Source: Candidatus Heimdallarchaeota archaeon
GTDB lineage: Archaea > Asgardarchaeota > Heimdallarchaeia > Heimdallarchaeales > Heimdallarchaeaceae
Reading direction: 5' to 3'
Length of the DNA: 14,195 bases
Assembly: GCA_016839945.1 (NCBI GenBank)
Contig: JAEOTE010000156.1
Span: forward strand, 1-14,195
The position numbers were made by a program, and so were the translations under genes. The notes under the pieces are model-generated. The model did not search any database, was not told the origin of the DNA, and was given only the letters and a program-made list of their open reading frames with translations. Positions 1 to 14,195 of this stretch are shown here, one piece after another; the first letter of the stretch is position 1; each line of letters starts with the position of its first letter.

Positions 1-454
1 AAACATCTGAATTCATTATAGCTATTTCTAATGATAGAATTGTGGAGAAGAATTTGTGTACTTTTGGGTCTGTTTTCTTAATTTCAACTAGAATTGCTAA
101 AGAACTAGCTATTAATGATGAAACAACAGCTTTTTCTCCTACAAGTTTCGCTGACTTTAAACGGAAGAACATAGCTTCGAAATTATCTTCAGGAATAGGG
201 AATGTCAAGACTTTTGAATATTGTGAGAGCAGGAAATATCCAATCATTGATACTTCAGTATATACAATTCTATAATGTTCTGGAGTATCTTTTGCATGAG
301 CTAAGTCGTCAGTTGCATTAACTATTGACTGAAAAAAAGTATCGTTCAACTCTTGATATTTCTTGAAAACAGGGAAGAACCTTTCAAAATCCTCTAGTAT
401 ATATTGTTCATATCGAGAGAATTCATTAGGTATATCAAATTCCTCTGTGTTCAA
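1..454 (-). CDS. Hypothetical protein, N-terminal 151 aa, runs off the window start (MNTEEFDIPNEFSRYEQYILEDFERFFPVFKKYQELNDTFFQSIVNATDDLAHAKDTPEHYRIVYTEVSMIGYFLLSQYSK...)
   Basis: Hand translation of the - strand is open from TTG at 454 to position 2 with no stop. An AGTGA RBS-like element lies just upstream. Co-oriented with the 527..1531 gene. Absent from the ORF track because it has no stop in the window. Confidence 0.8.
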   Translation of the reverse strand, partial: MNTEEFDIPNEFSRYEQYILEDFERFFPVFKKYQELNDTFFQSIVNATDDLAHAKDTPEHYRIVYTEVSMIGYFLLSQYSKVLTFPIPEDNFEAMFFRLKSAKLVGEKAVVSSLIASSLAILVEIKKTDPKVHKFFSTILSLEIAIMNSDV

Positions 455-526
455 AATATCTCACTATACTTTTTTCTCTAGATTCTCTATTAAAGATTCT
501 TAATGTCCCAGATATTATTTCCAATA

Positions 527-1531
527 TTACTTTCTCTTTTTTTCTATTTCCATCTTAACATCTGAACTAAGTTTTTTCCAGTATTGATAGTATCCATTCC
601 TATTCAGTAACTCTTTGTAAAATGTAATAGAAATTTTATCGTTCTCAAAAGCAGTGTAAAATTCTTCTTTTATTGGAGACCTATCAAATCGTATTTTCCT
701 TTGAGCTTCTAAGAGTATTGGTTCTTGATTTCTCATCATACTGAAAGTTTTCAGTTTTTTTCCTAGATTCTCTTTCAAAACTTCCTCCCATTTTAAACTT
801 CGCAAAAAGTGATGATCTATGTAAACCTCCTTTGCACAATCAACCACTCTTCCAAGATATTCAAAAGACTTAGCAAACTCATTTTTAATTTTGGAAAGAT
901 AAAAAGGAAAACCATCCAAAGCAACTAGATCAGGGGAATTCTCTTCAATAAATTCTGTTGCTATATTAGAAGAAGGTCCACAAACATCAGATGTGTAGAT
1001 GTATTGGAAATCATCTTCCTCAATCATCGTTTCAAGAACGTATCCTCTTGCTCCTTCTGAGCCATGAGGAACAGGAGGTGAGAAAACTATTTTAGTTGAA
1101 CCTATTTCGTAAGTAGAATTATCAGCTTTTGAAAGTTTGAGCTTTTTATTTTTCCATAGCCATTTAGCTCTTTGTTGTTGACTATAATTGAGAAATTTAT
1201 CAGGATCTTTAGCTAGTATTGTAACTTCAGGACTGTATATTGAATTAAAGACATCTCTGTTAGTAAACTCATATTTTCTTTCAACTCCCAAAGTAAAGTG
1301 ATCTCCATGATAATGAGACTGGATTATAATATCTACTAACTCAGCAAATTCAAGAATGATTTTTCTGGATAACCAAGAAGCTGCGATTTCGATAGGAAGT
1401 GGTCGTAAACCGAATCTTGTTGGACCTAACGAAACACTAGGATCAATTAAGATGTTTACACTTCGAGTCATTACTAAATGTGCAAAAGACCGAGTGCCTA
1501 AAGATTCGCAGGATATTGGAAAAATCTTCAT
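527..1531 (-). CDS. UPF0282-family metallo-beta-lactamase-fold hydrolase
   Basis: N-terminus ESLGTRS...ILIDPSVSLGPTRFGL is typical of archaeal UPF0282. MBL motifs SHYHGDH (HxHxDH), PVPHG, TSDVCGP and IDHHFLRS are present. Confidence 0.85.
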   Translation of the reverse strand: MKIFPISCESLGTRSFAHLVMTRSVNILIDPSVSLGPTRFGLRPLPIEIAASWLSRKIILEFAELVDIIIQSHYHGDHFTLGVERKYEFTNRDVFNSIYSPEVTILAKDPDKFLNYSQQQRAKWLWKNKKLKLSKADNSTYEIGSTKIVFSPPVPHGSEGARGYVLETMIEEDDFQYIYTSDVCGPSSNIATEFIEENSPDLVALDGFPFYLSKIKNEFAKSFEYLGRVVDCAKEVYIDHHFLRSLKWEEVLKENLGKKLKTFSMMRNQEPILLEAQRKIRFDRSPIKEEFYTAFENDKISITFYKELLNRNGYYQYWKKLSSDVKMEIEKKRK

Positions 1532-1658
1532 TTATGTATTAATTAAACAATCCTATAAAAATAATTAGTGAAGTTAATGTAAAAATTCAAATTTATTGGT
1601 TTCAAGTAACTTACTAGTTAATTTTTTATACTGTTAATAGTTTCATTATTTGAGAAGC

Positions 1659-3131
1659 ATGAGTAATGAAATCATGGAAAATCCTGTTTTTGCAAGTAAA
1701 TACGTTTCTAAATTTACTCATTATGATGAAATAAATGATGTACTTACTGAAAACCTTCAATTTGAAGAACAAGAATCAATTGAGATTCTGCTTCTTCCTA
1801 TTATTGATCAAGTTCCTGAAAACAAGAAAGGAATTGTACGTACATTCATTAAAAATAAAAGTCATAACACTTTAACTTTATACATCTATTATAATCTAAC
1901 AGGATGGTTTAGTGATTTACCTAAAAATGAAAATCTGAGATTTCTTGAATCTTTCACAATTGGTCCTTCTGAAATATGGTTTAGAGATATAGAATTCAAG
2001 AGCATGATAAAGCAAGGAAAGAACTATCTACAAATTGTAGCAACACAAGAAAAATCAAAAAAACCCAAAGAGTTTGTATCATCTCATATTGAGTATACTC
2101 AAACAAGAGAGATAGTAGAAAGTATTCAGATCGAGAGAAGTAATTATATGGGAATGATTTCAAGAGCTTACATAAATCCTAGATCTCTCAAATACTGGAT
2201 TTTTTATTCTATATTTGGTAAAAATGTATATAGAAAAGAAAATATCTTCATCTTCCTATTAAAACGGTTACTTCTATTAGCTGGTATTACTTTCTTCACT
2301 CTATACTTTGTGCTTCCAATGATTTTTGGACTTGGATTTGTTCTTCCATTGAGTATCATAGCTATTGTTATTTCAATCTCATCTTTCATCTTAGATAGAG
2401 ATAGTAAGAAACTTGTAATCATTCATGAATTGGGATTATCTGAAAGTGATAAAAAAGCTAGCCTAAAATTAGTAAAGGAGACTTACGGAGGATTCTTACA
2501 GAAATTCTGTGCTAATGATATAAATTTTGATTATGATTTAGAAAATGATGTTGTTCATTGGAAGGAAGGAGCTAATAGGTTATATGAAAAAATCATTCCT
2601 ATTATTAGTAGATTAATCCATATTCCAGTAAATATAAAACCTCCAATCAAAGTTAGACCATCTCGAGTTGAAGTCTTTGAAGATAGAGAACAATTGAAAG
2701 AAAAAATTGAACGAGGAATCGAATTACAACATGAGGAAGGAATACGTTTTAGAGATGAGATTAAAGGAGTAGCAAAAGACATTGATGGAGTTGAAATGTC
2801 CATAGATGTTGTTGAATCAGATACACAAATAGAACCTGAATATATAGGAATAAAAACTGACCCAAAAATTGACACAAAAATTGATCCTATCATTTCCAAA
2901 ACTTCTGTTGAACCAGAGATTAAGAAAATCGAATCAAAATCTGCAGTAGAGCCTAAAATTGAAACTATAGAGTCAAAAACAACCGTTACACCAGAAATTG
3001 AACCTGTTAAAACTGAAACTGAAGGTTTAATCTCTGGAGAAAGAGAAAAACCTAGAAAAAGAAAATCTATTGATTTCGAAGCAATCCCAGAACCTAGGAA
3101 ACTTCCTAAGGATGATGAAGAAGAGAAATAA
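1659..3131 (+). CDS. Hypothetical membrane protein with two central TM helices and an acidic, repetitive C-terminal region
   Basis: Long ORF; ATG 1659 preferred over TTG 1650. Hydrophobic hairpin LLLLAGITFFTLYFVLPMIFGLGFVLPLSIIAIVISISSFIL; E/K/P-rich tail. Confidence 0.8.
   Translation: MSNEIMENPVFASKYVSKFTHYDEINDVLTENLQFEEQESIEILLLPIIDQVPENKKGIVRTFIKNKSHNTLTLYIYYNLTGWFSDLPKNENLRFLESFTIGPSEIWFRDIEFKSMIKQGKNYLQIVATQEKSKKPKEFVSSHIEYTQTREIVESIQIERSNYMGMISRAYINPRSLKYWIFYSIFGKNVYRKENIFIFLLKRLLLLAGITFFTLYFVLPMIFGLGFVLPLSIIAIVISISSFILDRDSKKLVIIHELGLSESDKKASLKLVKETYGGFLQKFCANDINFDYDLENDVVHWKEGANRLYEKIIPIISRLIHIPVNIKPPIKVRPSRVEVFEDREQLKEKIERGIELQHEEGIRFRDEIKGVAKDIDGVEMSIDVVESDTQIEPEYIGIKTDPKIDTKIDPIISKTSVEPEIKKIESKSAVEPKIETIESKTTVTPEIEPVKTETEGLISGEREKPRKRKSIDFEAIPEPRKLPKDDEEEK
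2895..3011 (+). repeat. Three degenerate 13-aa (39-bp) coding repeats
   Basis: SKTSVEPEIKKIE / SKSAVEPKIETIE / SKTTVTPEIEPVK within the 1659..3131 protein. Confidence 0.65.
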
Positions 3132-3207
3132 AAGCTACTGAAAAAAATTCACATATAACAAGCATGCAAAATAAAATAAATGCTTATTATTTCCTATACA
3201 AAATAAG

Positions 3208-3981
3208 GTGATTAAAATCGAAACTAGTAAGTATCCCATAAAATTTAGGGAAACAGAAAATTTTAGCTTCTTACCATTAAAAATAGCTTGTATAGGAATT
3301 TTAGCTTACTACATCTTAGAAATGTTGAATAGAGTAATTTTCTTTACAACAGATATAGAATTAGATGAGATGGCAGTAACTTGGAGAATTGTCGATTCTG
3401 TAATATACGCTATAACGTTTATAATAATTGCAATTCAGACAGCTGTATGGAGAGAAAAATTACATGCTTATGAGAATAGAAAAAAAGCAAGGAATGCATT
3501 CTTTACATTAATACTCACTGCTTTATTTACAGCTATGTATGAAATTCTAGTACTTGAAATGGATAAGCTTCAACCATCTCATCGAAGTGATTTAACTGTA
3601 CCATTTCTTTTCATGATTGTACTTCATTATTATAGTATAAGTCAAGTTAGACAGATTATCACTAGAATTGGCAGAACAAAAAAAGCTGAAACTGGAAGAT
3701 CAATATTCTATACATTTTTCGCATTAAATCCATGTATACGTTATTTACTTCCTTTCCTTTTAATGGTTTTAACTTCTGTTGGAGGGGATTTATATTTCGT
3801 TTATATGTTTTATTCTGACTTGATTATGACTTATCTAAGCGCTGCAGTTGCTGTAGGTTTCACTGTAATGATTTTTCTTGACAGTAGAAAAATCAGAAGA
3901 GCTCAATTAATGGAAACAATGAGAACAGAGATAGATAAACAATTAGCACAAGAAACTCTACCTGAAGATCAAGTTTTTTGA
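3208..3981 (+). CDS. Hypothetical polytopic membrane protein (about 6 TM)
   Basis: 257-aa ORF with about six hydrophobic segments. GTG start; an internal start is possible. Confidence 0.75.
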   Translation: MIKIETSKYPIKFRETENFSFLPLKIACIGILAYYILEMLNRVIFFTTDIELDEMAVTWRIVDSVIYAITFIIIAIQTAVWREKLHAYENRKKARNAFFTLILTALFTAMYEILVLEMDKLQPSHRSDLTVPFLFMIVLHYYSISQVRQIITRIGRTKKAETGRSIFYTFFALNPCIRYLLPFLLMVLTSVGGDLYFVYMFYSDLIMTYLSAAVAVGFTVMIFLDSRKIRRAQLMETMRTEIDKQLAQETLPEDQVF

Positions 3982-4667
3982 TCTTCTTTTTTCAATTCCT
4001 CATCTGTCATTTTCTTCAAAGCAGATGCTATTATAGCTTCTTTTCTACTTCTAAAAAATGATATAACTAAGAAATATAGAACCAAACCACCTACAGTTGT
4101 TCCAACTATTATGAAAATTGCTATTGTTATTGGATTTTTACCAGGGTAAATTTCTGTATTGTAACTTTCAGTCATATGATCTATTGCATATTGGATTCTA
4201 GTTTCAATATAAATATAATCTACACTTCCATAAACACCATCTACTATGTTTCCTAAGTCATCTAATATAACTAAAGTTGGAACTCTCCTAATATCAAACA
4301 TTCTTTCAGTTTCTAATGTGGAGTAACCAAAAATCCAATCATCTGATAATGAATGATTTGCTTTGAATCCCAATAATATCTCTTTTGGATCCTCTCTATT
4401 TGCATTCAAACCAAAAAGTGTAACATTGTAATTTTGATTGATTTGTTCTAGAACTGCAGCTTCTGCTATGCAACTTGAACAAAATGGTAAAAAGAATTGA
4501 ATTAATCTTATCCCTTCATAGTTGTAAGTGTTATCTGGATTTTTATCTATATCTAAAAAAGAAATTCCTGTATTTGTAATATCACTTCGTGTGAGTACTG
4601 TTCCAGAAATTAAAATTAAGTATATTAGGAGAATTGGAAGGATTTTTATCTTCTTCACATTCATCAT
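3969..4667 (-). CDS. Membrane-anchored TlpA/ResA-like thioredoxin-fold protein
   Basis: N-terminal signal/TM, FFLPFCSSC (CxxC), cis-Pro motif RRVPTLVILD, C-terminal TM. AGGTG RBS upstream. Confidence 0.8.
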   Translation of the reverse strand: MMNVKKIKILPILLIYLILISGTVLTRSDITNTGISFLDIDKNPDNTYNYEGIRLIQFFLPFCSSCIAEAAVLEQINQNYNVTLFGLNANREDPKEILLGFKANHSLSDDWIFGYSTLETERMFDIRRVPTLVILDDLGNIVDGVYGSVDYIYIETRIQYAIDHMTESYNTEIYPGKNPITIAIFIIVGTTVGGLVLYFLVISFFRSRKEAIIASALKKMTDEELKKEDQKT

Positions 4668-4679
4668 CTACACCTTTCA

Positions 4680-5765
4680 TTATCCTATAGCACTATAATT
4701 AGCTACTCTTCTATCATCTTCAAGTTTTACATTATCACATATAACAGACTTTTCTATAAATGAGTTTCTTCCTATGGTTGTGTTTTCCCAAATTACGCTC
4801 CTTTCTATTGTAGAATTTTCTTTTATTACAACATCTGAATGAATGACTGAATAGGGTCCAATAATGGATTTTTCTTCAATTATCACATTATTTCCAATTA
4901 CAACTGGTGGGATAATTTCAACGCTTTCAGAGATTTGGGTATTTTCTCCATACCAAGTATTTTTTCTTTTATTACCAGGAGGGTAATAACCTTTTACAAA
5001 TCCTCTCAAAATATCATAATTTGCCCAAAGATAACTTCGTATCTGTCCACAATCAAGCCAATAATAATCACCGACATACCCGTTTACTTTGAATTTCTCT
5101 TGTAGAAGATAGGGAAAAAGTTCTTGTCCAAAATCAGTTATATCTTTGAAACTATCCAATATCTCTAATATCTTATGTTTAAAGATATAAACACCTGTAT
5201 TTACTAAATTTTGGTGAAATTCAGCAACTGGTCTGTGGGCAAAAGCTATTGTTGTAAAAAGCATTTCTTCAGGCTTAGGTTTTTCCAGAAATATCTCTAT
5301 ATTTTGTTTTTCATCAAGTAAAATAACTCCGAATTTCTTTGTTGGAAAATCAATATTTTTCAAACTAATTGTTGCAAATGCTTCAGTTGATTTGAAAAAC
5401 TCTGCCATTTTTTTAACAGAGATATCACTCACTATATCTGCCATTGAAACAACAAAGTTCCCATTGATTAAATCAGATACTCTTCTCACTGCATCAGCTG
5501 TTCCAATAGGACCTATGTCTGGGATTATTATCTCTAAATCCTTGAATTGAGAAGATTCTTCTAGATATTTTCTTATCTGATCCCCCAAATATTTGACTGC
5601 AACAATTATCTTCTTTATTCCAGCATCTGCTATCTGTTTAATGGCAAAATCAATCATAGGCGTTAAAGCTACTGGAACTAGAGGTTTAGGTCGATTTGTT
5701 GTAAGAGGTTGGAGACGAACTCCTTTTCCTCCAGCTAAGATAACTGCACAGTCTATATCTGTCAT
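4680..5765 (-). CDS. NDP-sugar pyrophosphorylase (mannose-1-phosphate guanylyltransferase-like) with C-terminal hexapeptide-repeat domain
   Basis: AVILAGGKGVRLQPLT..RPKPLVP, GTADAV, FLEKP, NTGVYIF and YWLDCG motifs, plus LbH repeats. Start is ATG 5765 or GTG 5774. Confidence 0.9.
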   Translation of the reverse strand: MTDIDCAVILAGGKGVRLQPLTTNRPKPLVPVALTPMIDFAIKQIADAGIKKIIVAVKYLGDQIRKYLEESSQFKDLEIIIPDIGPIGTADAVRRVSDLINGNFVVSMADIVSDISVKKMAEFFKSTEAFATISLKNIDFPTKKFGVILLDEKQNIEIFLEKPKPEEMLFTTIAFAHRPVAEFHQNLVNTGVYIFKHKILEILDSFKDITDFGQELFPYLLQEKFKVNGYVGDYYWLDCGQIRSYLWANYDILRGFVKGYYPPGNKRKNTWYGENTQISESVEIIPPVVIGNNVIIEEKSIIGPYSVIHSDVVIKENSTIERSVIWENTTIGRNSFIEKSVICDNVKLEDDRRVANYSAIG

Positions 5766-5943
5766 ACATTTCACTTTCTTTAGTTTAAAGATGAATCATC
5801 TTTTTTATTCTTTTGCTTTTAACTTGAAAACTAAACTGGTATTTCTTATTAAGGCTTAAATTTTGTATTTCTATTCATTTTAGCAATTAGTTTATATATC
5901 ATCTTTATCTTATAGTAATTTGCTAAATAAAAGAGGTAATAAA

Positions 5944-6756
5944 ATGAACAAAAAAACAGGAACTATATTAGCATCTTTGATTATTTTAATTTTTAGTTTT
6001 TCAATTTCTAGCAACGTTATTGTAAAAGCAGCTATAGTTGAAGGTTACAATTATTCTAGTTTGTTGGTTACCGGGACTGAATTAGCTTGGACATTATCAA
6101 AGCTTGAAATAACAGAAGGCAGTGGAGATCCTGATCTTTTTCAACTAACAGCAACTGAAAGCATGTCGGAAGGTGATGTTTTCAAAATTGTACTATTGCA
6201 AAATTTAAAGGACAGTGGATTAGATCCTTTTGATTTATATGATACCTCAACACAATGGGCAGAATTTTTCCTTAATAGTGTATCTCTTGGTAAGAATGTA
6301 ACAGATATTTACTGGGGATCATTTATGGGAGAAACTGGAATGATGTCGAGTGCACATATTCTTCCAACAATTATAGAATTAGATACTGGAGATAAGAATT
6401 ATTTTGATTATATGGCAGAAGAATTTGAAACATTAGCTGAAAATGAAACTGCAGGAATTTCTATTAGCAATACAGCAGACAAATATACAATGAAACTAGA
6501 GATTCATGAAAAAATTGTCTTCCTAGGTACATTCAAAATAGATTTGAGTTTAGAAATCGTATATAACAAAGAATGGGGAGTACTAGCAAAATATGATTTA
6601 AAAGAGTCAATATCAGCTCTTGGTGAAACAGCAAAGATTAATATTCTATATGAGATTAACAATGAAGAGATTAAAGTAGCACCATTCAGTTGGATGTTTA
6701 GTTTTGTAGCAATTTTCATTACTGCGGTAGTGATTTTAAGAAGAAGGAAAAAATAA
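5944..6756 (+). CDS. Secreted/surface protein with C-terminal sorting-type TM anchor (paralog 1)
   Basis: ATG 5944 follows a GAGGT RBS. Signal peptide MNKKTGTILASLIILIFSF; tail APFSWMFSFVAIFITAVVILRRRKK. Clear full-length similarity to 6882..7697. Confidence 0.85.
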   Translation: MNKKTGTILASLIILIFSFSISSNVIVKAAIVEGYNYSSLLVTGTELAWTLSKLEITEGSGDPDLFQLTATESMSEGDVFKIVLLQNLKDSGLDPFDLYDTSTQWAEFFLNSVSLGKNVTDIYWGSFMGETGMMSSAHILPTIIELDTGDKNYFDYMAEEFETLAENETAGISISNTADKYTMKLEIHEKIVFLGTFKIDLSLEIVYNKEWGVLAKYDLKESISALGETAKINILYEINNEEIKVAPFSWMFSFVAIFITAVVILRRRKK

Positions 6757-6797
6757 ATTCCCTACTTTTTTTTTTTCACTAAGTTCTTTAGTGAAAA
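6757..6797 (+). terminator. Oligo-T terminator plus inverted repeat
   Basis: T11 run at 6766-6776 after the stop; TTTTCACTAA(6773-6782)-N5-TTAGTGAAAA(6788-6797). Confidence 0.55.
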
Positions 6798-6881
6798 TAT
6801 ATTAAAAAAAGTCAATTTTCAACAATTACTTTAAATAATATCTTTGACTATTTGTTCATTACTTAACATTAGAGTGATCAA

Positions 6882-7697
6882 ATGAACAAGAAAATAAAAG
6901 TGACTTTGGCTTTAATAACAGTTATGATATTTAGTTTTGCAATTTCAAGCAATATGATTACAAAAGCAACATTTTTTCATGATTTTACTTATTCAGATAA
7001 ACTAGTACCTGGTGCGGAACTAGCTTGGAAATTGACAAAGTTTGAATCAACTCCAGAAGAAACAAATGGTGCTTATATTCCATTGTTGGAAGGAGTGAAT
7101 ATGACAGAAGGAGATGTCTTCAAAATTGTAATATTGCAAGATCTTGACGATTTAAACTTAGATTTTATGGATGAGCTGTACTTTACTTCACAACAATGGG
7201 GAGAGTTTTTCCTTAATGATGTATCTCTTAGTAAGAATGCAACTGATTTATATTGGTATACTTTTTACGGAACTTCAGGATTTTTGATGAGTTCTCTCAT
7301 TGTTCCGACAACAGTTCAAATATATACTGAAACTAAGAATTATTTTGACTTTTTGACTGAAGATTTTGAATCTCTCGCAGGTAATGAAACTGAAGGAATT
7401 ACAATAAAGAATACAGCAGACACATATACTATGAAATACAAAATTCACATCAGCTTGACATTTCTGATTTCATTGTCTCTGGATATGAGTTTAGAAATTG
7501 GTTATAATAAAGAATGGGGAGTGCTTGCAAAATACGACCTATCAGAGACGATAAAAAGTGGTGGTGAAACAACAAAAATTAGAATGTTATATGAATCAGT
7601 TACTGATGAAATTAAAGTACCATTCAATTGGATGTTTAGCTTTATTGCCATTTTTGTTACTGCTATAGTGATCTTAAGAAGAAGGAGGAAAATATAA
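6882..7697 (+). CDS. Secreted/surface protein with C-terminal sorting-type TM anchor (paralog 2)
   Basis: Shares GxELAWxLxK, EGDVFKIVxLQ, QWxEFFLNxVSL, KNYFD and YNKEWGVLAKYDL with paralog 1. Tail VPFNWMFSFIAIFVTAIVILRRRRKI. Confidence 0.85.
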   Translation: MNKKIKVTLALITVMIFSFAISSNMITKATFFHDFTYSDKLVPGAELAWKLTKFESTPEETNGAYIPLLEGVNMTEGDVFKIVILQDLDDLNLDFMDELYFTSQQWGEFFLNDVSLSKNATDLYWYTFYGTSGFLMSSLIVPTTVQIYTETKNYFDFLTEDFESLAGNETEGITIKNTADTYTMKYKIHISLTFLISLSLDMSLEIGYNKEWGVLAKYDLSETIKSGGETTKIRMLYESVTDEIKVPFNWMFSFIAIFVTAIVILRRRRKI

Positions 7698-7717
7698 ATT
7701 CCCTACTTTCTTTTTTT
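7698..7717 (+). terminator. Oligo-T terminator, duplicated together with the gene
   Basis: TAAATTCCCTACTTT is identical after both paralogs (6754-6768 and 7695-7709) and is followed by a T-run. Confidence 0.55.
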
Positions 7718-7734
7718 AATTAATATTATTTGTT

Positions 7735-8190
7735 CTATTTCTCTTCATTTAGCTTATCTTCAAGCCAACCTACTTTGCAATTTTCAATACCCTTCAAATC
7801 GAACTTAGGAACCATTGGTTTGATATCTAGAAGAGGAGTACCATTTAGAACATCTATTCCCTTTACTAACAGTTTGTTTCCTTCAACCCTGACTAATCTT
7901 ACTACTGATAATCCCATTAAATTTGGTCTGTTAGGATGACGAATTGCAAATATACCTTTAGGTTTATTGTCCATAAAAGGTTGAATAATCAATTCTTCTC
8001 TTTCAGCTCGATCGAATCTGTATATTAGTATTAGATGAGAGAAGCCTTCTACATCTCTTAATCCTTCCTTGAAATCGGGATGTACAATTACTGTACCAAA
8101 AGCATCTGAGAATCCTGGTTGAATTGGAACTTCTTCTGGATTTTCAAACGGACTTTCAATAAAACCAATAGGTTTGATAACAAATTCCAT
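7735..8190 (-). CDS. trmO: tRNA (N6-threonylcarbamoyladenosine(37)-N6)-methyltransferase TrmO/TsaA family
   Basis: KPIGFIESPF, GLRDVEGFSHLILIYRF, GIFAIRHPNRPNLMGLSVV and GIDVLNGTPLLDIKP are family-diagnostic motifs. Confidence 0.92.
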   Translation of the reverse strand: MEFVIKPIGFIESPFENPEEVPIQPGFSDAFGTVIVHPDFKEGLRDVEGFSHLILIYRFDRAEREELIIQPFMDNKPKGIFAIRHPNRPNLMGLSVVRLVRVEGNKLLVKGIDVLNGTPLLDIKPMVPKFDLKGIENCKVGWLEDKLNEEK

Positions 8191-8309
8191 ATGTAATAAT
8201 TTACATAGATACTTTTCTTTTTTTTGGAAAACAATACTTTTTACTCAGTAAGATGAAATTTAATGGAAATTAATCTTGACTTACATGAAAAGTGACAGAT
8301 TTTTGAAAA

Positions 8310-8328
8310 ACATCTATACGATAGATGT
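8310..8328. promoter_or_regulatory. Palindromic candidate operator in the divergent trmO / GTPase intergenic region
   Basis: ACATCTAT-ACG-ATAGATGT, perfect 8-bp arms. Confidence 0.4.
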
Positions 8329-8450
8329 AACATCAGTAAAATCTTTTTTGTCGGGATGAATTTAATACAAAAATTTCTAGACAGCATTAGAAAACCCAGA
8401 ATCGGCGTAGAATGCACTTTTGGCTTTTCTGCCTTCCCTCTAACAAAGTA

Positions 8451-8458
8451 TTTAAATA
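8451..8458 (+). promoter_or_regulatory. TATA box of the small GTPase gene
   Basis: TTTAAATA about 40 bp upstream of the GTG start, followed by a TGGTGG RBS-like element. Confidence 0.55.
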
Positions 8459-8499
8459 GAATCGTTGGGGAGTTAAACATGTAATGGTGGTTTGTTAGT

Positions 8500-9066
8500 G
8501 TGAGCCAGAGAATATTCAAAATCACCTTGTTGGGTGAAGGTGCAGTTGGCAAAACTTCTATAAGAAGAACATATCTAGGGGAAAGTTTCAAGGAGGGGTA
8601 TATGATGACAATTGGAGCTGATTTTGCGGTTCAAAAAATGACACATAATAATACCGAATATACTTTGCAAATTTGGGATTTAGCTGGTCAACAAAGATTT
8701 TCCGCAGTTCGTGAGGTCTACTATCGAGGAACTGCTGGAGCATTATTAGTCTTTGATGTTTCACGACCTGAAACTTATGAGATTCTTCCTAATTGGTTGC
8801 ATGAATTAATTCGTAATAATAAGAACCGCATTGTTCCTATTGTACTTATTGGAAACAAAGCTGATCTTCGTGATTCTACACCTTATTCCGTTCCTATCAA
8901 TTATGCTCAAGAGTATGCTGATCAACTTTCTGAATGGTCAGGATTTTATGTTCCATACATTGAGACTTCTGCTAAAACTGGATTAAATGTAGAAAAAGTA
9001 TTTCAAGTTCTTACTGAGAATATTTCTTCGTATTTTGAAAGAATGCTTATTGAAGAATATAAATAG
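8500..9066 (+). CDS. Rab-like small GTPase (Asgard eukaryotic-signature type)
   Basis: G1 GEGAVGKT, G2 TIGADF, G3 WDLAGQ, G4 NKAD, G5 ETSAK. RabF-like motifs IGADF, TLQIW, RFSAV, YYRG, LVFDVS. No C-terminal cysteines. Confidence 0.95.
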   Translation: MSQRIFKITLLGEGAVGKTSIRRTYLGESFKEGYMMTIGADFAVQKMTHNNTEYTLQIWDLAGQQRFSAVREVYYRGTAGALLVFDVSRPETYEILPNWLHELIRNNKNRIVPIVLIGNKADLRDSTPYSVPINYAQEYADQLSEWSGFYVPYIETSAKTGLNVEKVFQVLTENISSYFERMLIEEYK

Positions 9067-9167
9067 CTATACTATCCTCTTCTTTTTTTCTTGTTAGTTG
9101 ACCCTATCTTCTACAGAAATAGATTTTTATTCTCTTTCTCTTTTTCATATATAGAGTAGGGATTAAC

Positions 9168-9668
9168 GTGATTGATCTTCAGGAATTCATTTCATACCTT
9201 TCCGATCATGATTTCACTCTTTCTTCAGGTGTTCCTTGTTCTTATTTCAAGGATCTGTTAATCAACTTAGAAAAAGATCCTGATATCTACTATGTCCCAG
9301 CTACTCGTGAAGATGAAGCTGTTGGTATAGCTTCTGGCTATTTCTTAGGAGATGGCAAGAAAAGCTTCCTTATCATGCAAAATTCCGGTTTAGCTAATAT
9401 TGGAGATGCTCTAACCTCACTAGCTCAATTGTACAAGATCCCTATATTATTATTTGTAAGTTATAGAGGATTAGAACCCGACAATGATTTCCCTGAGCAT
9501 TCAATCATGGGTGAAGTTACAGAAAGTGTACTTGAAGCATATAAAGTTCCATATTGGAATCTTGAAGAAAGTAATTGGATAAAAACTCTTGATTTAGCCA
9601 TTAATAAAATGGATAAGACTTCATTACCTGTGTGCTTACTTGTAGAAAAAGGAGTGCTAAGCGAATGA
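9168..9668 (+). CDS. comD: Sulfopyruvate/phosphonopyruvate decarboxylase alpha subunit (ComD-like, ThDP N-terminal domain)
   Basis: GVPCS, PATREDEAVGIASG, MQNSGLAN, IPILLFVSYRG and IMG motifs. Substrate is not resolved from sequence. Confidence 0.78.
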   Translation: MIDLQEFISYLSDHDFTLSSGVPCSYFKDLLINLEKDPDIYYVPATREDEAVGIASGYFLGDGKKSFLIMQNSGLANIGDALTSLAQLYKIPILLFVSYRGLEPDNDFPEHSIMGEVTESVLEAYKVPYWNLEESNWIKTLDLAINKMDKTSLPVCLLVEKGVLSE

Positions 9669-10231
9669 AAGGTGCTGAAGTAATTTCCAAGCTGAATAAT
9701 GTTCTTTCTGGAGAGGAATTGATTGTCAGTTCCAATGGCAATGTTAGTCGTCAAGCATTCCATTTACTCCCTCAACCTCAGCTCTACCTTAGAGGTAGTA
9801 TGGGTCTTCCTGTTCCTGTAGGTTTAGGTTTAGCTATAGCATTACCAGGAAAAGACATTATCGTTTTGACGGGAGATGGAAATTTCTTAATGGGATTGAG
9901 TTCCATGGCAACTGTAGCTTTTCTTAAACCACTGAATCTCAAAATCATCATTTTGGATAATGAACTTTATTCAACTACAGGAGGACAAGAAACAGTCTCT
10001 TCTAACATGGGTTATTTGGAACTTGTTTTGGGGATGGGTGTTCAAAACATCAATTCGATAGATTCCATAGAAAAAGAAGATGTTATAGAGAAGATTCTTT
10101 CCGATACAATAAAAGATCCAGGTCTGCAAGTTTTACATATAAAGGTTGAAGAAGATACTATTAACTTGGAGAACATTCCCTGGCATCCAGTTGAGATCAA
10201 AGAACGATTCTTGAAACAACTAGACATTTAG
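9665..10231 (+). CDS. comE: Sulfopyruvate/phosphonopyruvate decarboxylase beta subunit (ComE-like, ThDP C-terminal domain)
   Basis: ATGA overlap with the comD stop (ATG 9665). GSMG, GLGLAIA, GDGNFLM...ILDN (ThDP motif) and TGGQET are present. Confidence 0.78.
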   Translation: MKGAEVISKLNNVLSGEELIVSSNGNVSRQAFHLLPQPQLYLRGSMGLPVPVGLGLAIALPGKDIIVLTGDGNFLMGLSSMATVAFLKPLNLKIIILDNELYSTTGGQETVSSNMGYLELVLGMGVQNINSIDSIEKEDVIEKILSDTIKDPGLQVLHIKVEEDTINLENIPWHPVEIKERFLKQLDI

Positions 10232-10250
10232 ATTTAGTTGGAAGGTAGAA

Positions 10251-10258
10251 CTTAAATA
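10251..10258 (+). promoter_or_regulatory. TATA box for a probably leaderless MoaD/SAMP transcript
   Basis: CTTAAATA ends 23 bp before ATG 10281, the expected spacing if transcription starts at the ATG. No SD is visible. Confidence 0.5.
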
Positions 10259-10280
10259 TTTTTTAACATAGAAATAATCA

Positions 10281-10562
10281 ATGAAGATCAATGTTCAATG
10301 CTTTGGACAAGTAAGATCAATAACAAAAGAAGCGATTGTGTCTATAGATATTCCAGATAAAATTTCTATTGTTAAAGCGTTAGATATTTTTGTTCAAAGT
10401 TTTGGGGAAGAAATGGAAAAAATCCTCTATAGTGATGGAAAGCTTAGAAAATTCTATTTCATTCAAGTGGATAAGAAAAATGTAGAACATGAAGAATTAG
10501 ATGATTTTATTCTCGAAGATGCTCAAACAGTATCTATTATTCCTTTTGTAGCAGGTGGATAA
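10281..10562 (+). CDS. MoaD/ThiS/SAMP-family ubiquitin-like sulfur carrier
   Basis: 93 aa, MKINVQCFG start, C-terminal VSIIPFVAGG di-glycine. Confidence 0.92.
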   Translation: MKINVQCFGQVRSITKEAIVSIDIPDKISIVKALDIFVQSFGEEMEKILYSDGKLRKFYFIQVDKKNVEHEELDDFILEDAQTVSIIPFVAGG

Positions 10563-10577
10563 ATTTTCTACAAGATA

Positions 10578-10657
10578 TAAATAAAAGAAGATGGAGGGAA
10601 GCTAGCAAAAAAATGATAGTGGGTGGATAATAATTATGAAGACTTTTGGCTAGCTTC
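10578..10657 (-). ncRNA. Candidate ~80-nt sRNA (or bidirectional terminator hairpin)
   Basis: Stem 10598-10611 / 10644-10657 (13 of 14 pairs; GAAGCTAGC/GCTAGCTTC). TTTATATA on the - strand at 10686-10679 puts a TSS at about the first base of the stem. Pyrimidine/U-rich 3' tail. Confidence 0.4.
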
Positions 10658-10716
10658 AAAGGATTGGTTATATGAAAGTATATAAACTCAACAATTTTCA
10701 AAGGTTATTTTCAAAA

Positions 10717-11082
10717 TTAAGCATAAGGATTTATTTCTGAATACTTTCGGATTATTTCCTTCTTTTCTTTGATATCTTCCTCTTTATGTTCTATATCACA
10801 AACATTTTTCTCTTTTAGTTCTCCTTCTTCGAAAACTGTTACTTTAGCTAATTGAATGAAGTTCTCATCATCAACAAAAATCTTCCCTGTTGCCTTTAAA
10901 TCTTCGATACCAAGAAGTATACGTTGATAATCTGTTAGAAGGTTATTATCATGCTTTATTAAATCGAATAGATCATCTATTTTGATCTTTCCTTTTTCTT
11001 TTAGAATCTTCTCTAAATTGGTCTTAAAGGATTCTTTTGCCGCTCTTTGCACTTCTTTCGTATCGCCCCAAACTATTGCCAT
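10717..11082 (-). CDS. Hypothetical protein, possible winged-helix domain
   Basis: LEKILKEKGKIKIDDLFDLI...ILLGIEDLKATGKIFVDDENFIQL fits a helix-strand-helix-helix-wing pattern; charged tail. Confidence 0.7.
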   Translation of the reverse strand: MAIVWGDTKEVQRAAKESFKTNLEKILKEKGKIKIDDLFDLIKHDNNLLTDYQRILLGIEDLKATGKIFVDDENFIQLAKVTVFEEGELKEKNVCDIEHKEEDIKEKKEIIRKYSEINPYA

Positions 11083-11203
11083 GCCAAATCAAACAAAAAG
11101 AGAGTTAAGACTATTTAAACAAAAAAGAGAGGTCAGTGAAAGTATTATAATAATGAAAAAGAAACTGAAATCAAGAAATGAAGTGATTTGTTTTACAGTC
11201 TTC

Positions 11204-12145
11204 TTATCTCTTTCTTTTTTCCTTTCTTCTTTGTTTTTCCCTCTTTAACCTTTCTTTCTTATATTTCTTTAACATGAGTTTGTCTAATTGTTCATCTGTT
11301 AAATTTGGAGGATTTAATAGAGGTTCAGGATTTTCTATTAATTCTTTAAAAAGCTCAATTGTTGGACCAGTATAGATTCCTGGTGCTATTCTATCATCTA
11401 TAGTTACCTTTAATTCCATTATTTTGCGAATATCAACCTTTTCAGTTTCTTCATCTATAACTTGAATTTTACGTATTTTTCCTAATGTTATTAAAACACC
11501 TGTTGTTCCAAATTCAAAGAGATGATGATATACTGCTGGAATTCCTATTGAACCCAAATGAGCAATGAATGCAGTAGAAAACATTGGTATATCTTTGGTA
11601 AGTGCATAAATTGGTATGTTGTGTTCATCTGTCCATCTCATGAACCAGAACATGAATCTAATAACAAACCTAGGCATTGCTCCCCAGAATTTAATATCTT
11701 TTTCATTTGGGTTTACTCCATGTCTAGCTTCGTAGAGATGTTCATTTACAATATTCTGGACTGTTTCCAATGTATCAAAGGGATCAAACTCAATCATGGC
11801 GTTTATTTCTTCCCCATCTTCTGATTTTTCTTTATTGACAACAAAAGAAATAATAATCTGATTTCGTTGCCATAATCTCCTTCCAGATACGAAACGGTTA
11901 ATTTTAGGACGTAAAGCTGATGTTCTAACACCTGCTGCTAGATATATCTGAAATAGTGTTAATTTATCTTCTTCATTCTTACCGTTGTTGTATTTTTCTA
12001 GGAATTTGTATGTATTAGTAAGATCCACCTGTGTTTTGTAGAAAATTTCACTTGATGATTTCCTAGGCATTATGTAAAATTCCATTTCATGAAATTTTGA
12101 GGTTTTAACCAATTCTGCATCAGGTCTTCTTGGCATGTTTTTCAC
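11204..12145 (-). CDS. Stand-alone 2-oxoacid dehydrogenase E2-like acyltransferase catalytic domain (no lipoyl domain)
   Basis: RPKINRFVSGRRLWQRN, STAFIAHLGSIG, VYHHLFEFGT, ITLGKI and TIDDRIAPG (at the DHRxxDG position). Start is GTG 12145 or ATG 12136. Confidence 0.85.
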   Translation of the reverse strand: MKNMPRRPDAELVKTSKFHEMEFYIMPRKSSSEIFYKTQVDLTNTYKFLEKYNNGKNEEDKLTLFQIYLAAGVRTSALRPKINRFVSGRRLWQRNQIIISFVVNKEKSEDGEEINAMIEFDPFDTLETVQNIVNEHLYEARHGVNPNEKDIKFWGAMPRFVIRFMFWFMRWTDEHNIPIYALTKDIPMFSTAFIAHLGSIGIPAVYHHLFEFGTTGVLITLGKIRKIQVIDEETEKVDIRKIMELKVTIDDRIAPGIYTGPTIELFKELIENPEPLLNPPNLTDEQLDKLMLKKYKKERLKREKQRRKEKRKR

Positions 12146-12566
12146 ATCTGCTTTGATAAATAAAGTACTTCTGTATGATTTATGGTTGTTTTTAACTTTT
12201 TCCAGAAAAATGAATTTTTTTGAATAATATATTCAATATAATCAAAATCTGATAGTGCGTACTAAGTTTTATTGTAATTAAGATCAATCCTATTTGTAGA
12301 ATTTTATCAATTTTTCACAATTGATTTTTAAAATAGCGCTTAAATCTCTTGTTTTTAGGTTTTAAAAACTTAAGCTTTTTTTTATATAAATAAGAAATTG
12401 GGATTAAAATAAAATATATTTAGCTTAAATAATATTTTTTTGAAAATAAAAAAGTTTTAGCTATAAATTTTATTATATTAAAGAAAAAAAAATTGAGGTA
12501 AAAATTGCCGAAATATTGCCCAGATGATACCAAAAAACATACGTGTACAGTATAAGGAGAATATAT

Positions 12567-12582
12567 AGATTCTTAAGAATCT
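12567..12582. promoter_or_regulatory. Perfect 16-bp palindrome, candidate operator
   Basis: AGATTCTTAAGAATCT. Confidence 0.45.
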
Positions 12583-12665
12583 TACCGACATAAAAAATTG
12601 ATCCAAGAAAAAAGTGAAATTTTCACCGCTTGTAGCTTAAGTTTTTAGGAGTTTCAAGAGGTAAA

Positions 12666-12710
12666 TGTTACAATTTTCCAGATTTTCTCTTCTGGTGGAA
12701 AAAAGTAACA
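12666..12710. promoter_or_regulatory. Long inverted repeat abutting the BRE/TATA of the peptide gene, candidate operator
   Basis: TGTTAC-aa-TTTTCCA (12666-12680), N15, TGGAAAA-aa-GTAACA (12696-12710); 13 of 15 positions complementary. Confidence 0.5.
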
Positions 12711-12713
12711 ATA

Positions 12714-12763
12714 TTTAAATAGAAGATGAAAAAGTGTAATCTTGAGCTTTATTGGCTGGTGGA
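12714..12763 (+). promoter_or_regulatory. TATA box (TTTAAATA 12714-12721), predicted TSS about 12744, and SD (GGTGGA 12758-12763) of the repeat-peptide gene
   Basis: Canonical archaeal spacing; the SD lies 8 nt before ATG 12772. Confidence 0.6.
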
Positions 12764-12771
12764 TAATAGAA

Positions 12772-13002
12772 ATGAAAAGTAAAACTAAGAAATTACTTGG
12801 CGTATTATTTGTAGTATCATTTATTGGAATAACAGCAAGTGTGATCGCTTGTGCAGGTCCAACAGGTGGATATCCTGATGAACCCTTAGGTCATACTGCA
12901 GGTCCAACAGGTGGATATCCTGATGAACCCTTAGGTCATACTGCAGGTCCAGACGGGGGATATCCAGACGAACCGATTAGTCATACTCGAATATATGTAT
13001 AA
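12772..13002 (+). CDS. 76-aa secreted precursor peptide with three tandem 15-aa cores
   Basis: MKSKTKKLLGVLFVVSFIGITASVIAC + AGPTGGYPDEPLGHT x2 + AGPDGGYPDEPISHT + RIYV. Good SD and TATA. Copy 3 carries four synonymous codon changes, which supports coding status. Confidence 0.85.
   Translation: MKSKTKKLLGVLFVVSFIGITASVIACAGPTGGYPDEPLGHTAGPTGGYPDEPLGHTAGPDGGYPDEPISHTRIYV
12852..12986 (+). repeat. 3 x 45-bp tandem repeat (coding)
   Basis: 12852-12896 and 12897-12941 are identical; 12942-12986 is diverged. Confidence 0.97.
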
Positions 13003-13045
13003 TGTGTAAAAAAATTCATGCTGACGTGAAATAATCGCCAGAAAA

Positions 13046-13400
13046 ACCCCACCCCTTTCCTCGGCGAGAGAAGGAAACCTGGGGCGTCTTAGAGAGGTCA
13101 TAGACGCCCATTAGGTTTTCATAAGGGGTGATATCCACAAGCAAATAGAACTCAAGCAAGGGGTAAAAAACGGGTCAAACCGAAAAAAAACTTTCGAGGT
13201 CTATAACTGAGAGAAATCCTACGAAGGCAGAAATCCTTGGGGATTTTTCATAGAGATCTTGTACAGAGTTCGCTACGTTGAATCTACGTGCAGGTTCTCC
13301 TGATCGAATTCTGTACGCTTGATCTCTTTGTCAGTTTATCTATCTTGACCCTACAATCTATCTATCCACCAACCAACCATAGAAATATGGGGGTCAAAAA
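13046..13400 (+). ncRNA. Large structured non-coding RNA / cis-regulatory leader of unrecognised family
   Basis: At least 10 nested helices found by eye, e.g. 13050-57/13123-30, 13073-81/13112-20, 13082-89/13102-09, 13172-78/13345-51, 13205-10/13331-36, 13252-58/13321-27, 13261-72/13305-16. G-U pairs work only on the + strand. Visibly GC-richer than other intergenic DNA here. Confidence 0.7.
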
Positions 13401-13401
13401 A

Positions 13402-14195
13402 ATGGAAAAACTTGAAAACATGACAAATTCAGACAAAAGAATACTGCAAATCTTGCAGAATTATCCACTAGAACCTTTTTCTTCAATGGCAAAGAGAGTG
13501 GAAATTTCTCCACAAACAATGATTCGAAGAGTAGAGAATCTAAAGAGTCGCAATATACTTCGCAATGCTATAGCCTCTTTCGTCCCTGAACGTATTGGTC
13601 TTACTAGATTTAGCGTTATTTTTGATATTTCTCAACTCCACCAGTTTACGCTTTTACAAAACGCTATTTCTGAACACAATTACATACGTGCATACAATCG
13701 ATTTTATGGCGAAAAGTTTGGCATACAAGCAAATTTCGATGTCCCAATGAATGTAAATGGAGTATTCACAAAATTCTTAGATTACTTAGTAAACGAAGAA
13801 TTCTGTGATGGTTATACCATATTCAAATCTAAAGGTCATCGTTTTTCTAAGCCAGCACCTATAACTATCTACAGTCAAGATCCAGAACCTTTTGATATCA
13901 TTTCATTCTGGCAAAAAAGAGTTAAAGCCAATTCTGAATTAAATGGTGTTAGAAGCGCTGTGACTGTTAAAAACGGAGAAATCATTATTGTGACTGATGA
14001 AGGAGAAAAACCCATTGAACCTTTACATCTAAGACTACTTCGAGATCTAACACGAGAAACTGCAAATGGACATAGGATTGGAATTCGCACACAACAAACA
14101 GAGCTAATTAATAACTACAGAGATCTGTATAAAAGCTTAGGTAAGAAAATAAGACTTACACCTTCAGAAGAGCACTTATTCAACAACCTTAGCGA
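13402..14195 (+). CDS. Lrp/AsnC-family winged-helix transcriptional regulator, probably tandem-domain (partial, more than 264 aa)
   Basis: Hand translation is open to the window end: MEKLENMTNSDKRILQILQNYPLEPFSSMAKRVEISPQTMIRRVENLKSRNILRNAIASFVPERIGL (Lrp HTH + linker), a RAM-like domain, then a second helix-1-like segment PIEPLHLRLLRDL. SD GGGGGT at 13389-13394. Alternative in-frame ATG at 13387. Confidence 0.88.
   Translation, partial: MEKLENMTNSDKRILQILQNYPLEPFSSMAKRVEISPQTMIRRVENLKSRNILRNAIASFVPERIGLTRFSVIFDISQLHQFTLLQNAISEHNYIRAYNRFYGEKFGIQANFDVPMNVNGVFTKFLDYLVNEEFCDGYTIFKSKGHRFSKPAPITIYSQDPEPFDIISFWQKRVKANSELNGVRSAVTVKNGEIIIVTDEGEKPIEPLHLRLLRDLTRETANGHRIGIRTQQTELINNYRDLYKSLGKKIRLTPSEEHLFNNLS

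Follow-up and report, generated by a model that had tools for sequence, protein, structure and literature searches.

A genus-restricted structured RNA between two genes of Heimdallarchaeota, with conserved complementarity to the leader of the upstream peptide gene

What is the role of a large, stably folded RNA that lies between two genes of an Asgard archaeon? The question is raised by contig JAEOTE010000156.1 of Candidatus Heimdallarchaeota archaeon (GenBank assembly GCA_016839945.1), of which positions 1 to 14,195 of the forward strand, 14,195 nucleotides (nt) in all, were analyzed (the window). The assembly is an AT-rich metagenome-assembled genome (3.0 Mb, 186 contigs, 32% GC, 88% completeness). 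A first-pass annotation of these letters had described a two-domain structured RNA of no recognizable family at 13046 to 13351. The conserved element was found to be about 330 nt long and to begin earlier, at 13034 (ATCGCCAG), on the + strand, with an additional conserved motif at 13015 to 13025. It lies between an open reading frame (ORF) for a repeat-containing peptide precursor and a gene for a tandem Lrp/AsnC-fold protein, and carries a segment complementary to the 5′ leader of the peptide mRNA. Its structure is conserved and covarying among relatives, as is the complementarity. On balance, and with some reserve, we regard it as probably a lineage-specific cis-regulatory RNA that folds back on the leader of the upstream gene.

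ViennaRNA assigned the + strand of 13046 to 13351 a minimum free energy (MFE) of −107.6 kcal/mol compared with −80.0 ± 5.0 kcal/mol in 100 dinucleotide shuffles (z score, −5.53), and none of the 100 shuffles was as stable; the comparison with shuffles that the annotation had proposed as a check is thus significant. The minus strand of the same region folds less strongly (z score, −4.2). GC content is 0.41 to 0.47 in the region and 0.15 to 0.36 in its surroundings. Every helix drawn by the annotation was recovered at its coordinates in both the MFE and the centroid structure. In domain 1 these are CACCCCTT/AAGGGGTG and the long arm GGAAACCTG..TAGGTTTTC with GGGCGTCT/AGACGCCC, and in domain 2 GGGTCAA/TTGACCC, CGAAA/TTTCG, AACTGA/TCAGTT, GAAATCC/GGATTTT, AGAGATC/GATCTCT, and GTACAGAGTTCG/CGAATTCTGTAC with the apical three-way junction. 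The parts of the element and the leader facing it are as follows.

12741 to 12765, + strand: 5′ leader of the peptide mRNA, with a Shine-Dalgarno (SD)-like GGTGGA (12758 to 12763); partner of the anti-leader segments
13034 to 13067, + strand: invariant 5′ block ATCGCCAG-AAAAA-CCCCACCCCTTTCCTC-GGCGA, nearly every position the same in 20 sequences
13073 to 13120, + strand: long arm of domain 1 with the conserved loop motif GAGGTC (13094 to 13099), present in the MFE structure and covarying
13123 to 13130, + strand: AAGGGGTG, the 3′ strand of the arm-closing helix, paired with 13050 to 13057 in the MFE structure
13131 to 13157, + strand: anti-leader site A (AUAUCCACAAGCAAAUAGAACUCAAGC) with the conserved GAACTC (13148 to 13153), 3′ part of domain 1
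13158 to 13205, + strand: invariant core, comprising (A)AGGGGT, GGGTCAAACC (13172 to 13181), a variable hairpin and GAGGTCTA (13198 to 13205)
13206 to 13351, + strand: domain 2, nested hairpins with a long arm AGAGATC..GATCTCT (13252 to 13327), an apical three-way junction and the closing strand TTGACCC (13345 to 13351)
13357 to 13376, + strand: anti-leader site B (..TATCCACCAACCAA..), a second copy after domain 2 (predicted pairing near 13357 to 13380)

Pattern scans followed by de-duplication yielded 20 distinct sequences of the element, 18 from species genomes and 2 from metagenomes; 4 of the 37 matches in the metagenome scan proved genuine, and 2 of these were new. A BLASTN search picked up relatives in 10 of 24 congeners, at approximately 70% identity across the first 165 nt. 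The sequences were sorted into group A (L002, L003, L005, L006, and L007), group B1 (L008 to L011 and L035), group B2 (L014, L015, L020, L021, L026, and L029), and group B3 (L027 and L042), with the window and L004 as singletons. At every locus with enough flanking sequence the gene order was the same: promoter, DEP-repeat ORF, RNA, A/C-rich linker, and tandem Lrp/AsnC-fold gene. Identical or nearly so in the 20 sequences were ATCGCCAG-A(2-5)-CCCCA(C)CCCCTTTCCTC, GGCGA, the arm loop GAGGTC, GAACT[CT], CAAGGGGTCAAACC, and TT[AC]GAGGTCTA, the last two of which, both in the core, were identical in all 20. Between these blocks the helices vary in sequence yet remain paired, and substitutions track base pairs rather than codons.

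For domain 2, a plain MAFFT alignment of the 13 group B sequences, with no structure fitting, gave an RNAalifold consensus of 40 pairs in which 95.7% of cells were paired. Fourteen pairs were changed on both sides, compared with 6.6 ± 1.4 in shuffles (0 of 500 reached this number), and sliding the partners by one to three columns left 0 to 5 such pairs. The long arm of this domain accounted for much of the signal, with 12 of its 18 pairs changed on both sides. The same approach failed in domain 1, where RNAalifold on a plain MAFFT alignment returned seven invariant pairs. Since the failure arose from differing arm lengths, a hand-seeded covariance model, R1 (146 positions, 25 pairs; window match at 13034 to 13170), was needed, and the resulting alignment of all 20 sequences is model-fitted and leans towards structure. 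With that limit, 92.3% of domain 1 cells were paired, 11 pairs were changed on both sides compared with 7.1 ± 1.2 (0 of 500 shuffles), and 10 of the 13 arm pairs were changed on both sides. The annotation had held that wobble pairs fix the + strand. This is borne out in domain 2, where G-U outnumber A-C cells by 69 to 6, and is marginal in domain 1 (20 to 12).

Covariation among 13 to 20 homologs therefore upholds the domain 1 arm and the long arm of domain 2, while the closing helix GGGTCAA/TTGACCC and the hairpin CGAAA/TTTCG proved specific to the window. Domain 2 is closed by AAGAAACAA/UUGUUUCUU in most relatives, and group A carries a GCGGAU..AUCCGU hairpin at the CGAAA position. The helix that the annotation named P1, which closes the arm, is conserved loosely. 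Its 5′ strand is invariant and its 3′ strand differs by group (AAGGGGUG, GGAAAGG, GAGGAA(A), UUGAGG, or AAUUGAGG), pairing in shifted registers along the pyrimidine strand CCCCACCCCUUUCCUCAAUU. Closure of the arm is under selection, and the invariance of the pyrimidine strand must stem from another cause. Three candidate pseudoknots were noted. UCGCC/GGCGA and ACCCC/GGGGU are invariant, so covariation can neither support nor refute them; GAACUY/RRGUUC shows by eye one compensatory position (C-G versus U-A, with a U-G intermediate).

Site A connects this structure to the upstream gene. In the window, 13131 to 13157 can pair with 12741 to 12765 through 21 Watson-Crick pairs and one G-U pair, with three mismatches (−25.3 kcal/mol by RNAduplex), and the duplex covers the SD-like GGUGG. 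Complementarity occurs at the same place in all 13 homologs having both parts, with 15 to 25 Watson-Crick pairs in each. For all 11 homologs in which the start of the peptide is known, RNAduplex paired the leader (about −38 to −5 relative to the ATG) best with the same stretch of the RNA, which lies between the arm-closing strand and CAAGGGG and contains GAACUY together with a small variable hairpin. The paired sequences themselves differ between groups: the RNA segment AAGCUAAUUCGAACUCAAG faces the leader CUUGAGCUCGAAUAAGCU in B1, CACCAGUUAAAACUGAACUCAA faces UUGAGUUCAAUUUAGCUGGUG in B2/B3, and AUCCACCAUAAAUUGAACUU faces AAGCUCAAUUUAGCUGGUGGAU in group A. Cognate duplexes had a mean energy of −22.9 kcal/mol compared with −18.9 kcal/mol for duplexes between groups, and 0 of 10,000 random re-pairings were as good. 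With six lineages reduced to one representative each, the true pairing of leader and site A ranked 2nd of 720, and the controls, the 5′ part of the RNA and the reversed segment, ranked 278th and 343rd of 720, both about 9 kcal/mol weaker. Compensatory columns of the MAFFT alignment include G-C in seven sequences versus A-U in three, and others change from A-U to G-C or from U-A to A-U. These sequence comparisons indicate that the complementarity between leader and site A has been kept by selection through compensatory change.

The pairing was also predicted when the two partners were folded as one molecule. In contiguous RNAs that begin at the leader and stop where domain 1 ends (415 to 654 nt), the MFE structure placed 16 to 23 leader nt in a long-range helix in 12 of 13 homologs. 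For a 670-nt transcript of the window (12735 to 13404; z score, −5.9), the leader was paired with site B, thereby enclosing both domains, which stay as the annotation drew them. Site B-like sequences of the CCACCAGCU type were seen by eye in group A (L003, L006, and L007) and in none of group B. Taken by itself, the RNA also ties up parts of site A with short sequences that imitate the leader (L002, GGUGG..CCACC; B2/B3, CUGG..CCAG), and in most sequences GGGUUC or AAGUC stands after GAGGUCUA, opposite GAACUY. The last base of GAACUY co-varies with both the mimic and the leader, a pattern such as a two-state switch would leave.

A fold-back in cis supposes that leader and element belong to one transcript. 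Upstream of the peptide ORF, a promoter with the sequence TGGAAAAT[TC]GTAACAA-N-T[CT]TTAAATA, followed about 24 nt on by GTAA or GTAG, is conserved in 12 homologs and fits the consensus GAAAnnTTTAAAA derived from 24 tRNA promoters of this genome. Given the distance from the TATA box to GTAA/GTAG, the pairing begins 3 to 6 nt after the predicted 5′ end of the message. A weight-matrix scan built from the tRNA promoters identified no conserved canonical promoter before the RNA or the regulator gene, its hits there being scattered, inconsistent and driven by A-richness. Runs of at least four T residues are almost absent across about 370 nt of the element (none in 10 of 20 sequences, with about three expected from base composition), and such a run occurs within 45 nt after 20 of 25 tRNA genes. 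The position of the promoter, the lack of T runs and the MFE structures of the contiguous RNAs together favor, and do not prove, a single transcription unit.

Several points weigh against the fold-back. The promoter scan is noisy, with weak A-rich hits just before ATCGCC in several species and, in B1, close to the regulator ATG, and co-transcription, the transcript ends and any processing are inferred. The z scores of the duplex against mononucleotide shuffles of the leader are modest in several species (−1.0 to −3.3; L011, +0.5), and 1 of the 13 full-length folds does not use the long-range helix. Within the long-range duplex G-U exceed A-C pairs by 11 to 7, a ratio that alone cannot separate RNA pairing from an inverted repeat in DNA. 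Comparable complementarity to a leader was clear in one of five sister-genus loci, where start codons are uncertain. Finally, the anti-leader makes up only about 27 of about 330 nt, and any role of the invariant 5′ block, of the GAGGUC loop and of the GGGGUCAAACC/GAGGUCUA core is conjectural.

The breadth of the family also bears on its interpretation. Rfam 15 (4,227 models) gave no match at the gathering threshold across the whole window, nor across eight related loci, in agreement with the absence of a recognizable family in the annotation, and under a permissive threshold (E ≤ 10) two chance-level matches only were obtained around the element (E values of 2 to 6). Two known archaeal RNAs were considered and rejected: the RNase P RNA of the genome (RF00373; 137.9 bits) lies outside the window at C175:76190-76508, and the sole match to archaeal SRP RNA (RF01857) was partial and on another contig (C61:71-247; 52.2 bits), with none in the window. 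The element is single copy: of 25 genomes of the genus searched with R1, 18 had exactly one, and all three high-quality genomes are among the 18. Searches with R1 found none in 6 genomes, two of which are closed, from four further genera of the family or in 16 genomes from the other families of the order, that is, in 0 of 22 outside the genus. A scan of 185,579 species genomes for exact matches to the invariant 5′ motif identified 17 contigs, 16 of which are labeled Candidatus Heimdallarchaeota, Promethearchaeati, or "uncultured archaeon." At the available search sensitivity the family is restricted to one genus. A search of the literature on noncoding RNAs and riboswitches of Asgard archaea and Heimdallarchaeota retrieved no comparable regulatory RNA.

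Among the alternatives, the one that survives best is an independent trans-acting small RNA of about 330 nt, either transcribed from its own promoter near ATCA[CT]G or cut from the operon transcript, which would be a stable regulator of the antisense type, using site A to bind the peptide leader and perhaps further targets. The complementarity and covariation described above would be expected of it as well. In group A, TATA-like boxes (TTTAAAT, TTTAAAC, or CTTAAAT) stand about 24 to 30 nt upstream of CACGATCGCC, the ATCA[CT]G motif is kept even in sister genera, and the compact, GC-richer fold resembles that of a stable RNA. Against this, no conserved canonical promoter was found in group B and, in most species, no oligo-T terminator follows the structure. 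Nothing promoter-like is present in the linker of the window, where transcription of the downstream gene must therefore depend on read-through, and the genome has no other copy of the reverse complement of the pyrimidine strand, leaving no obvious second target. A separate trans-acting transcript, or a separately transcribed regulator gene, is possible, and we hold a small RNA of this kind to be unlikely without dismissing it.

A second alternative is that the element serves the tandem Lrp/AsnC gene as a 5′ leader that acts like a riboswitch or binds a protein. The ligand of the core would be a metabolite, an ion or a protein (the regulator itself is one possibility), and binding would control downstream translation or read-through, leaving the complementarity to the peptide leader secondary. 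Covarying helices around invariant junction and loop nucleotides are typical of ligand-binding RNAs; this aptamer-like pattern is present here and is common to many structured RNAs. Domain 2 also offers mutually exclusive pairings (UUCUCUC:GAGAG versus GAGAGG:CCUUCUU, and AGAGG:UUCUCU). In the window, TTGACCC (13345 to 13351) can pair with either the GGGTCAA of the core or the GGGTCAA of the SD region (13391 to 13397), and in B1 and B2, whose SD sequences differ, each SD is matched by a complementary 3′ strand of domain 2 (UUGAUCUCU:AGAGGUCAA and GUUCCU:GAGGAAC). However, the element occurs at one locus in one genus and did not recur upstream of functionally related genes across taxa, which sets it apart from typical riboswitch classes, and no Rfam riboswitch matched. 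The SD and AUG of the regulator lie in most species in an A-rich linker predicted to be unstructured, 30 to 50 nt from the structure, the duplexes with the regulator SD are weak (z scores mostly −2 to +1), and there is no conserved terminator. This alternative is therefore rated as doubtful, and somewhat more so than a trans-acting RNA, although it can coexist with the cis fold-back.

A feature of the DNA, with the RNA fold incidental, is a far less probable explanation. The two partners are formally imperfect inverted repeats of 25 to 30 bp, 230 to 470 bp apart, and could flank an invertible or recombining peptide cassette or serve as operator sites for the adjacent DNA-binding protein; Lrp-family proteins often have several binding sites near their own genes, and the G-U to A-C ratio of the long-range duplex is not decisive. 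The internal helices, however, use many one-strand G-U pairs (69 versus 6), needless for DNA sites. The B1 duplex is interrupted by 16 to 24 unpaired nt on one side only, which fits RNA folding and is unlike a recombination site. The repeats are imperfect, with bulges, and have the same orientation in 20 of 20 sequences, and the invariant blocks are C- or G-rich single strands with no dyads. A self-cleaving or otherwise catalytic RNA, or a structural scaffold unrelated to the neighboring genes, has in its favor only size, complexity, and an invariant core, and is the least credible of all given no Rfam ribozyme match, a single copy per genome and a position that is always strictly tied to the same two genes.

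The annotation had suggested a functional RNA such as a riboswitch-like leader, a ribozyme, or a scaffold. A conserved structured RNA on the + strand stands, and none of the three roles is demonstrated, no ligand pocket, cleavage motif or terminator/SD platform having been established. Complementarity to the peptide leader is an option outside that list and extends beyond the annotated coordinates, and the evidence points to a cis-acting intercistronic RNA. In the fold-back that we favor, the promoter, the gene of the secreted repeat peptide, the structured RNA, and the tandem Lrp/AsnC-like gene would form one transcription unit, so that the RNA would serve the peptide message as its long 3′ untranslated region (UTR) and the regulator message as its 5′ leader. 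Site A, and in some species site B, would fold back over 230 to 470 nt onto the first 35 nt or so of the peptide mRNA, the pairing spanning from about +3 of the transcript through the SD sequence. With the peptide ORF closed into a loop, loading of the ribosome (30S) should be blocked, decay of the message changed, or both. The anti-leader would be partly held inside the RNA by the short leader mimics (GGUGG..CCACC, CUGG..CCAG, and GGGUUC opposite GAACUC), and the invariant core is, on that account, best read as a device that controls release of the anti-leader. From these pairings we infer switching and the repression of translation. A bolder and distinctly speculative proposal is that the element represents a new class of large archaeal riboregulator. 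On this proposal an RNA of about 330 nt, between a multi-copy secreted-peptide gene and a tandem Lrp/AsnC gene, might toggle between an internally held anti-leader and a clamp on the 5′ end of the peptide message, coupling peptide and regulator output in opposite directions, and might form the RNA core of a possible peptide-signaling circuit.

Other properties of the core and of the element as a whole were recorded. An ORF starting from the AUG of the core (AGAGGUCUAAAUGG) was considered as a conserved upstream ORF and rejected; it has 51 to 59 codons in L008, L009, L014, and L015 only, where it stops just beyond the AUG of the regulator, and 23 to 29 codons or none in the other 16 sequences, window included. 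The sequence AGAGGUCUAAAUGG itself (13198 to 13212 in the window, and in group B homologs) resembles the initiation region of the regulator (AGAGGUCAAAAAAAUGG in B1). The GGGTCAA of the core (13172 to 13178) is identical to the SD-region sequence at 13391 to 13397, both being complementary to TTGACCC (13345 to 13351); mimicry of the downstream start site is a possible explanation of this identity. There are 4 copies of the tetranucleotide GGTC in 368 nt (13034 to 13401 of the window), where its frequency across the genome predicts 0.38, and as many as 6 in L009; most copies read RGGUCW and fall in loops or junctions.

The genes and signals that flank the element are as follows.

12712 to 12721, + strand: TATA box (TATTTAAATA) of the peptide promoter, with the predicted transcript start at about 12738 to 12739 (GTAA)
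12772 to 13002, + strand: peptide-precursor ORF of 76 amino acids, with a signal peptide or membrane anchor ahead of three GGYPDEP(L/I) repeats
13015 to 13025, + strand: motif TTCATGCTGAC, just past the peptide stop codon; ATCA[CT]GCTGAC in relatives
13389 to 13395, + strand: SD-like GGGGGTC of the regulator, in an A/C-rich linker predicted to be unstructured
13402 to 14193, + strand: 5′ part of the tandem Lrp/AsnC-fold (NirDL-like) gene, which runs off the contig

Homologous peptide ORFs encode a basic and hydrophobic N terminus followed by two to six tandem units such as GPV[ET]DEPIG or GGYPDEP. The units are near identical, 15 to 18 amino acids long with a DEP(I/L)G core, and differ in number between species; a Pfam search of the peptide ORF gave no match. 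Conservation of the peptide control region (12670 to 12740 in the window and the same position in L002 to L029) extends far past the TATA box as TCCA..N..TGGAAAAT[TC]GTAACAA-N-T[CT]TTAAATA, and the neighboring Lrp/AsnC-fold protein could use the dyad-like TCCA/TGGA flanks as an operator. The motif ATCA[CT]GCTGAC after the peptide stop codon is kept in group B, in its 5′ part only in group A, and in similar form in sister genera, and is possibly a transcript start or processing site.

The A/C-rich linker measures 30 to 50 nt, and GAGG or GGAG stands 7 to 10 nt before the regulator ATG in all homologs; the 16S rRNA of the genome ends in ..GGAUCACCUCCU. At the 3′ end of the 16S rRNA gene (G000, contig C157, about 450 to 540), some 33 nt (AAGUGUGUAAGUUGUUUCUUACAUACCGCAUG) seem to be inserted between ..GGAACCUGCGG and UGGAUCACCUCCU, by comparison with the usual archaeal end. 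The downstream protein has 446 to 479 amino acids, of which Pfam sees an N-terminal AsnC-type helix-turn-helix (HTH) only. An AlphaFold2 model of an ortholog, built on a 13-sequence alignment (mean predicted local distance difference test score, 79.6; predicted template modeling score, 0.77), has two HTH plus RAM-like modules. Its best solved match in Foldseek was the fused siroheme decarboxylase NirDL (4ch7; E value, 5.8e−9), followed by many Lrp/AsnC regulators. The protein is, by this model, a tandem Lrp/AsnC-fold protein, and its role as a transcriptional regulator is putative. An RRNPP-type peptide receptor (HTH plus TPR) was considered and rejected, since the model shows two HTH plus RAM modules instead.

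The assembly splits the regulator gene, with residues 3 to 235 in the window (end at 14195) and 83 to 443 at the end of C92 (G000:C92:6081-7208); a paralog of 31% identity begins contig C126. Several paralogs of the Lrp/AsnC family are present per genome in sister genera. There, the orthologous gene (L086/L091 in G041, L087/L088 in G045/G046, and L089 in G044) is also preceded by a secreted protein whose C terminus reads ..FDPPGG..DEPxG..SP, and by a structured intergenic region of differing sequence. In G041 this region consists of three tandem modules (ATCACG, the hairpin TTAGAC-AGAATC-GTCTAA, TGAACACCCAC, and a long hairpin), and in G044 and G045/G046 of a single long hairpin and then a U-rich tract; only the 5′ motif ATCAYG..hairpin..AAUCGYC is held in common with the element. 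Elsewhere in the window, 8500 to 9066 encode a Ras-family small GTPase (Pfam Ras; E value, 1.3e−45), and genes of this family are common in Asgard genomes.

Among described systems, the element would work most like the 3′ UTR/5′ UTR fold-back of the icaR type, and by comparison with known RNAs it appears to belong to no described family. In the icaR mRNA of Staphylococcus aureus, a segment of the 3′ UTR is complementary to the SD region of the same message, and the duplex is proposed to block ribosome loading and alter decay, effects for which there is experimental evidence in that organism (PMC3868564). The likeness lies in a segment past the stop codon that is complementary to the SD region of its own message and encloses the ORF, and here such complementarity is conserved and co-varies in 13 homologs. 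Unlike in icaR, the host is an archaeon, the duplex spans nearly the whole 5′ UTR (about 25 nt) rather than a short anti-SD motif, and the anti-leader sits in a conserved multihelix RNA of about 330 nt that also precedes a second gene. End-to-end communication within a prokaryotic mRNA, affecting stability or translation, is likewise described for hbs of B. subtilis (5′/3′ UTR interaction; PMC5737220) and for haloarchaea, where a functional 5′-3′ UTR interaction exists and translational control needs both UTRs together (PMC2636863). Those cases involve short UTRs and no large conserved structured domain, and in the haloarchaeal case no covarying base-pairing element was defined, unlike here. 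With the hok-type fold-back of type I toxin mRNAs the element would share a predicted lock of the full-length transcript by a downstream element acting on the 5′ initiation region, and possibly a co-transcriptional window for translation. It differs in its enclosed ORF, whose product is a tandem-repeat precursor with a signal peptide rather than a small membrane toxin like that of hok, and in that no antisense RNA gene or 3′ processing signal was identified at this locus. Riboswitches and large structured noncoding RNAs of bacteria in Rfam, such as OLE, raiA, HEARO, ROOL, and GOLLD, resemble it in size, many covarying helices, invariant junction nucleotides, and intergenic position, but none matches it in sequence or structure, and it is confined to one locus in one archaeal genus.

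The element is a well-supported new RNA family, with 20 sequences and covariation in both domains, although its narrow distribution in one genus limits its immediate reach. Its long-range pairing between a leader and a 3′ region in an archaeon is backed by compensatory evolution and not by a single-sequence prediction. The Heimdallarchaeia are the closest known prokaryotic relatives of eukaryotes; we know of no Asgard member with a genetic system, and comparative evidence is thus the main route to the regulation of these organisms. The locus also suggests a connection, open to testing, between a secreted peptide precursor with tandem repeats and a protein of tandem Lrp/AsnC fold. Should the fold-back prove to control translation, it would extend icaR-like control by the 3′ UTR to the Archaea and may provide a handle on the timing of secreted-peptide production.

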